Positions 63,236 through 63,284 of a stretch of 64,000 nt of DNA are shown here, piece by piece; position 1 is the stretch's first letter; each line of letters opens with the position of its first letter. This stretch comes from Escherichia coli (GTDB lineage: Bacteria > Pseudomonadota > Gammaproteobacteria > Enterobacterales > Enterobacteriaceae). The notes beneath the pieces are model-generated. The model had not been told where the DNA came from, did not search any database, and worked only from the letters and a program-made list of their open reading frames with translations. The stretch lies in assembly GCF_013315695.1 (NCBI RefSeq), contig NZ_CP054353.1; one strand, 5' to 3'. Made by a program: the position numbers and the translations under genes.

Positions 63236-63284
63236 CTCGCCTGCTACAGGCGTTGTAGCGCTATTCCTGCTGCAACGCCTGTAA

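Follow-up and report, generated by a model that had tools for sequence, protein, structure and literature searches.

The directly adjoining agaI and rsmI genes of an Escherichia coli strain very probably represent the empty allele of a long-standing fimbrial locus with several states

Introduction

Chaperone-usher fimbriae of E. coli are encoded by operons of distinct types which are found at fixed chromosomal loci and whose presence is clade specific (PMC3559732). The described system closest to the locus analyzed here is the Yra fimbriae of K-12, a gamma-1 chaperone-usher type, whose genes are located between agaI and rsmI, i.e., at the very locus that is contained in our sequence (PMC3559732; PMC8767327; PMC3032704). 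The gene order in K-12 MG1655 is agaI, yraH, yraI, yraJ, yraK, rsmI. Yra is present in phylogroups A, B1, and C, is less frequent in D and is absent from B2 (PMC8767327). Both this absence from B2 and the clade-specific occurrence of operons at fixed loci are already published (PMC3559732, PMC8767327); a literature search for yraJ paired with phylogroup B2 returned nothing. Related chaperone-usher cassettes which exclude each other have likewise been described, e.g., Yqi/Yqi-like and Auf/Ycb (Wurpel et al. 2013, PMC3559732).

Two further reports concern operons of the alpha or CS1 type. K-12 lacks the alpha-type operon eafABCD, which has been reported for E. coli W and Crooks and is listed between the yqi and yra loci (PMC3032704), and a CS1-type operon has been described in uropathogenic E. 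coli (UPEC) of phylogroups A and B1 (PMC4128348).

Here we report on a stretch of 64,000 nucleotides of an E. coli genome, termed the window in the following, in which agaI is directly followed by rsmI and in which a class 5 (CS1-type) operon is present between exuT and exuR. Compared with K-12 Yra, the window shows the unoccupied state of the agaI–rsmI locus with zero yra genes.

Results and Discussion

The agaI–rsmI junction in the window

The features of the window are compiled in Table 1. The original prediction had placed the rsmI 3′ end about 49 bp from the agaI stop, and the coordinates of the open reading frames confirm a gap of exactly this length between the agaI stop codon TAA at 63233-63235 and the rsmI stop codon at 63285-63287 (TCA on the plus strand). 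The statement that K-12 carries yraHIJK between the two genes is also right as judged by the MG1655 gene order, and the proposed absence of the operon from the window junction is borne out by the short gap and by a blastn search with K-12 yraH, yraI, yraJ, and yraK, which gave no match in the 64-kb window. The four co-oriented genes between agaI and rsmI which define a Yra operon (coding for a major subunit, a PapD-like chaperone, an usher, and an adhesin) are not found. The RsmI protein of the window terminates with ...EQQGE and is one residue longer than its K-12 counterpart.

Table 1. Position of the features discussed in the text (coordinates refer to the window)
Feature	Position	Strand	Evidence and remarks
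Class 5 (alpha, CS1-type) chaperone-usher operon, flanked by exuT and exuR	14418..19518	-	ORFs, Pfam, and MS 21-1 annotation
agaI (galactosamine-6-phosphate isomerase/deaminase family)	62468..63235	+	255 aa; ORF and Pfam PF01182 (Glucosamine_iso); C-terminal tail ...LHNYFTCMIDEMCRR, then stop
Spacer, empty-site haplotype	63236..63284	.	49 bp between convergent stop codons
Imperfect inverted repeat, 15-16-bp hairpin	63245..63283	+	Arms 63245-63259 / 63269-63283, 9-nt loop, without U-tract
rsmI (16S rRNA C1402 2′-O-methyltransferase), 3′ part	63285..64000	-	Cut by window end; Pfam TP_methylase and RsmI_C

The complete genomes closest to the window are those of MS 21-1 and MSB1_4I (99.9-100% identity), and the MS 21-1 annotation shows the same layout as the window, with a full-length rsmI of 864 nt. 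In the region common to the sequences, identity of the window amounts to 99.15% with IAI39 (phylogroup F) and to 97.7% with CFT073 (B2), and because of this difference the source strain would have an F-like affinity and probably lies near phylogroup F. For MS 21-1 itself our literature search returned no paper stating the phylogroup.

Occurrence of the empty and the occupied site

With a 701-bp probe spanning the junction we searched 5426 complete E. coli genomes and found the empty junction to be contiguous in 1835 of them. The site is thus polymorphic in the species, being empty in about 34% of the genomes and occupied by yraHIJK in about 65%, with a third, Yra-like cassette in 2 genomes. 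A probe of 59 nt for the spacer matched exactly once per genome in 1820 genomes and gave no match in the other genomes at E values up to 1; in every match listed the spacer lies between agaI and rsmI. DNA of yraHIJK is present in 3523 genomes, of which 3264 cover at least 80% of the operon.

These counts bear on the suspicion that yraHIJK could reside elsewhere in the source genome or that the junction could be an assembly artefact. Just 64 kb of this genome are visible, which leaves room for such a suspicion, but more than 1800 genomes that were finished independently show this junction. Moreover, each of the 3549 matches to yra lies on the chromosome, the median being one per genome, and the genomes with an empty junction and those with yra DNA add up to 5358 of 5426, consistent with a near-partition. 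We consider this explanation scarcely credible.

Eight empty E. coli junctions were fetched, including the annotation of MS 21-1, and in all eight a 768-nt agaI is separated by 49 bp from an 864-nt rsmI. The spacer length is 49 bp in GF131, RIVM_C039227, KY 1497, EcPF5, and 2013C-4282 as well as in the reference strains CFT073 (B2) and IAI39 (F), both of which have the order agaI, 49 bp, rsmI. EC958 (ST131) is also empty. The yra genes are present in K-12, in an O121 strain, and in O157:H7, where in strain F6294 yraK is interrupted by IS1203. In the same O157:H7 strain agaI is a pseudogene with an internal stop. The published distribution of Yra among the phylogroups matches these cases, CFT073 and IAI39 being empty and K-12, O121, and O157 being occupied.

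The comparison of the junction with K-12 and other phylogroups, which had been suggested together with the original prediction, therefore yields two common states, and the window has the same state as the B2 and F references. The prediction would have been wrong had K-12 and most strains also had the two genes side by side. K-12 is occupied, as the prediction had stated, and adjacency of agaI and rsmI is found in 34% of the genomes. At the level of fimbrial typing the empty agaI–rsmI state is ordinary and already documented.

Two classes of gene ends

The empty and the occupied alleles differ not just in what lies between the two genes but in the ends of the genes themselves. In empty alleles AgaI ends with ...LHN[YH]FTC[MVL][IT]DEMCRR and RsmI with ...EQQGE. 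In occupied alleles the corresponding AgaI segment reads ...LH[SRN]NF[IT]CL... with varying ends (e.g., ...SNFICLI..) and RsmI ends with ...EQQG. The gene ends are thus specific for the haplotype, and within each class they are common to several species. The window belongs to the empty haplotype by its protein tails (AgaI with 255 aa and ...FTC-x-x-DEMCRR at its end, RsmI with ...EQQGE) as well as by its spacer, 49 bp with the ACAGGCGTTG...CAACGCCTGT hairpin and a single copy per genome. At the DNA level agaI of the window is 97.8% identical to K-12 agaI over nucleotides 1-725, after which the similarity collapses; the left flank keeps an identity of 97-100% to K-12 until about 45 nt ahead of the agaI stop and falls to 40% beyond this point.

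A search for repeats and a blastn search with the K-12 yra genes revealed no yra remnants, no IS element, and no flanking direct repeats at the junction. What a genuine scar looks like can be seen in strain EC25, where a K-12-type agaI end is followed by 136 bp of yra upstream DNA and then by IS1. In this strain (locus L018, 4001-5079) the IS1 follows directly on agaI, which it connects with deaD and a truncated mtr-like gene. The yra locus of this K-12-type allele has undergone a rearrangement, or a large deletion, mediated by IS1.

Could the window nevertheless be the product of a recent deletion of yraHIJK in situ, by illegitimate or short-repeat recombination that happened to leave 49 bp? 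K-12 and 60-65% of the genomes do have the operon at exactly this place, and there are short CTGCTGC motifs near both gene ends. However, the spacer and both gene tails are missing from the yra-positive alleles, the identical 49-bp junction type is found in Escherichia albertii, Escherichia sp. E1V33, E69, CFT073, and IAI39, and the junction is free of the yra remnants and of the IS1-associated rearrangement seen in EC25. The classes differ in the last codons of both genes, and for this reason the removal of yra from a K-12-type allele cannot have given rise to the empty one. A deletion in situ is extremely improbable and, we think, effectively refuted. Empty and occupied sites represent two haplotype classes which are old and differ in their gene ends and, judged from its sequence, the empty junction is a length-invariant, single-copy haplotype and no deletion scar.

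The claim that this strain had lost an expected operon is consequently not upheld: K-12 represents just one of two common states, the tails and the spacer cannot come from a deletion, and the search for scars or short repeats that had been proposed along with it found none. The more general idea of a lineage-specific turnover of adhesin loci at fixed hotspots fares better, the locus being polymorphic and the repertoire differing from that of K-12 at two fixed loci, but the part of this idea that supposed a lost operon and a deletion scar has to be given up.

We hold with considerable confidence that the window junction would be the empty allele of an old chromosomal locus with several states and not a deletion product. 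In the alternative class a four-gene chaperone-usher cassette, yraHIJK or rarely a Yra-like one, would replace the spacer and come with its own last codons of agaI and rsmI. Strains would pass from one state to another through homologous recombination within the flanking genes, which are conserved, rather than by excision or insertion in situ.

The K-12 map should not be taken as the default at this locus, and missing yraHIJK genes should not be read as gene loss. Beyond such bookkeeping the finding is of little importance. The class-specific ends of agaI and rsmI and the third, Yra-like cassette at the same site are mildly new; the haplotype-specific C-termini of AgaI and RsmI, the 49-bp spacer, and the third cassette appear not to be spelled out in PMC3559732, PMC8767327, and PMC3032704.

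Sequence diversity in the 3′ part of rsmI

An exchange of alleles could also have taken place in the ancestry of the strain. An ancestor with yraHIJK would then have lost the operon by allelic replacement, that is by homologous recombination with a donor having the empty site. In the 200 bp of rsmI that adjoin the junction (63291-63500), the nucleotide diversity pi reaches about 0.045-0.048 compared to 0.002-0.029 further out, and this peak is most pronounced within the group of empty alleles. In the window the junction-proximal 350 bp of rsmI are 94-96% identical to most of the empty E. coli alleles sampled and 99.1% identical to GF131, and the next 350 bp are 98.6-100% identical to the same strains, so that rsmI has a mosaic appearance. 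Both allele classes, moreover, cross species boundaries. On the other hand, the data stem from a small sample of 11 E. coli sequences, and simple vertical inheritance would account for the window just as well, since the site is empty in IAI39 (F) as well as in CFT073 (B2). We regard a replacement in the ancestry of this particular strain as unlikely. For the site as such, the mosaic rsmI 3′ alleles suggest, within the limits of the small sample, that recombination has occurred here. This rsmI stretch (63291-63500, homologous in the loci L011-L021) also resembles that of E. albertii unusually closely, with about 95% identity.

A third cassette and the situation in other taxa

In Escherichia sp. 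MOD1-EC7003 a four-gene cassette with the yra gene order is present between agaI and rsmI (locus L008, 11137-16152). Its products are 52-65% identical to those of yra; the usher is 58.5% identical to YraJ, and the adhesin of the Yra-like cassette is 49-52% identical to YraK. A relative of this cassette with about 80% DNA identity is found, also between agaI and rsmI, in the dog strain 18KM2445 (locus L010, 3947-8961). Among the 5426 complete E. coli genomes the cassette is present in two, 18KM2445 and the ivory gull strain MEW, and its placement at the site is known for 18KM2445. Three or more states of the locus thus exist, the occupied ones having features of the junction in common. In comparison with Yqi/Yqi-like and Auf/Ycb, all alternatives at agaI–rsmI share one site together with its boundaries, and the empty allele is a common third state.

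Outside the bulk of the E. coli genomes, the same spacer together with the same AgaI tail is found in Escherichia sp. E1V33, in ‘E. coli’ E69, which is a separate entry in a collection holding one genome per species, and in E. albertii NBRC 107761. In Trabulsiella odontotermitis agaI adjoins rsmI as well, with REP-like spacer DNA in between. E. whittamii carries yraHIJK at the same site with 83-90% amino-acid identity. This outgroup scan used exact 8-residue peptides and returned six loci; that E. fergusonii, E. marmotae, and E. ruysiae are not among them is therefore uninformative.

Because the gene order is empty in E. albertii and Trabulsiella, the empty arrangement is probably the older one. 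Two observations, however, speak against an empty-first scenario. E. whittamii and MOD1-EC7003, whose distance to E. coli is approximately that of E. albertii, have occupied alleles, and the RsmI of Trabulsiella ends with ...EQQG as in the occupied class, so that the extra Glu of the empty class is itself derived. One could go further and propose a genus-old, trans-species polymorphism with three states (empty, Yra, and Yra-like), with class-fixed C-terminal codons, maintained by balancing or niche-dependent selection and subject to homologous exchange which leaves the diversity peak at the rsmI 3′ end. We put this forward tentatively and regard it as somewhat improbable in its entirety.

The spacer hairpin

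The inverted repeat covers 39 of the 49 bp of the spacer. The predicted RNA fold has a free energy of -27.1 kcal/mol on the plus strand (z -4.96) and of -24.4 kcal/mol on the minus strand (z -2.6), several pairs being G-U wobbles which are valid on the plus strand only. Across the 7 distinct sequences the stem pairing is kept in 97% of the cells. A covariation analysis of these 7 sequences gave 1 compensatory change, no better than shuffles, and thus no support for a conserved structure.

The stem of 15-16 bp corresponds to the GC-rich stem–loop of an intrinsic terminator. A U-rich tract 3′ of the stem is absent, the sequence after the stem being AATCACTCC on the plus and AGCAGGCGAG on the minus strand, and a scan for Rho-independent terminators found no site on either strand. 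An Rfam search of 63000-63500 gave no match at E values up to 1. We infer that the element would be the 3′-end hairpin of the aga transcript and possibly a weak bidirectional barrier; it would act as a 3′-end stabilizer or weak terminator, mainly for this transcript.

Two other interpretations of the hairpin were considered. A dispersed repeat of the REP/BIME kind is rejected, since there is one copy in the window and one place per genome in 1820 genomes. The K-12 allele has a canonical hairpin followed by UCUUCUUUU after rsmI. The motif GCGTTG...CAACGC is common to this K-12 rsmI terminator and the window hairpin, and with a 7-nt indel the two can be aligned by eye; their homology is unproven, since yra-positive genomes gave no match to the 59-nt probe at E values up to 1.

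The class 5 operon between exuT and exuR

The original prediction had also included a class 5 operon gained between exuT and exuR, and this operon is real according to its reading frames and Pfam domains and is absent from K-12. The gene content, a chaperone (PapD_N PF00345), a CS1-type major subunit (Fimbrial_CS1 PF04449), a TcfC-type usher (Usher_TcfC/TcfC/CooC_C PF17271/PF16967/PF15976), and a CblD-type tip adhesin (CblD PF07434), is that of class 5. In K-12 and CFT073 exuT directly adjoins exuR and the CS1-type operon is absent. The fimbrial repertoire of the region therefore does differ from K-12, as had been proposed, namely at two fixed loci.

A CS1-type operon is found in 1916 of the 5426 genomes (35%), some of which are yra-positive; EC5502, for example, has the operon together with yra. 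Because of this frequency and co-occurrence, the exuT–exuR and agaI–rsmI loci are not coupled. The allele of the window is a rarer variant compared to the common CS1-type allele: sequences at least 99% identical to it are present in 6 genomes and sequences with 95-99% identity in 166. The commonest allele is about 86% identical to that of the window and occurs in 1683 genomes, and therefore the CS1-type locus has deep allelic lineages as well. In terms of fimbrial typing, the strain has an empty yra site together with a rare allele of the chromosomal CS1-type operon.

The operons described previously, eafABCD and the CS1-type operon of UPEC, have the same gene content as the window operon, and K-12 has neither (PMC3032704, PMC4128348). 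That the window operon might be eaf is deduced from the table order in PMC3032704.

Insertion sequences and aga pseudogenes

Two copies of IS1 were noted in the window. One of them (48003-48770) is inserted 77 nt into garD, which codes for galactarate dehydratase, and is flanked by a 9-bp target duplication, TGTGGCAAT; this insertion is absent from MS 21-1, IAI39, and CFT073. The other one (59866-60633) is located in the kbaY–agaB intergenic region and is without target-site duplication. At this IS1 about 295 bp present in MS 21-1, IAI39, and CFT073 are missing, comprising the last approximately 30 nt of the intergenic region and the first approximately 265 nt of agaB. In the window agaB is hence truncated at its 5′ end, the fragment left extending over about 60634-60844. 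Because of the IS1 and the loss of these 295 bp including the agaB 5′ end, agaBCDI, with agaI among them, is probably cut off from its promoter. Finally, agaA (annotated as nagA) is frameshifted in MS 21-1 (locus L002, 9653-10775), and in the window it is an intact open reading frame of 384 aa at 56197-57351.
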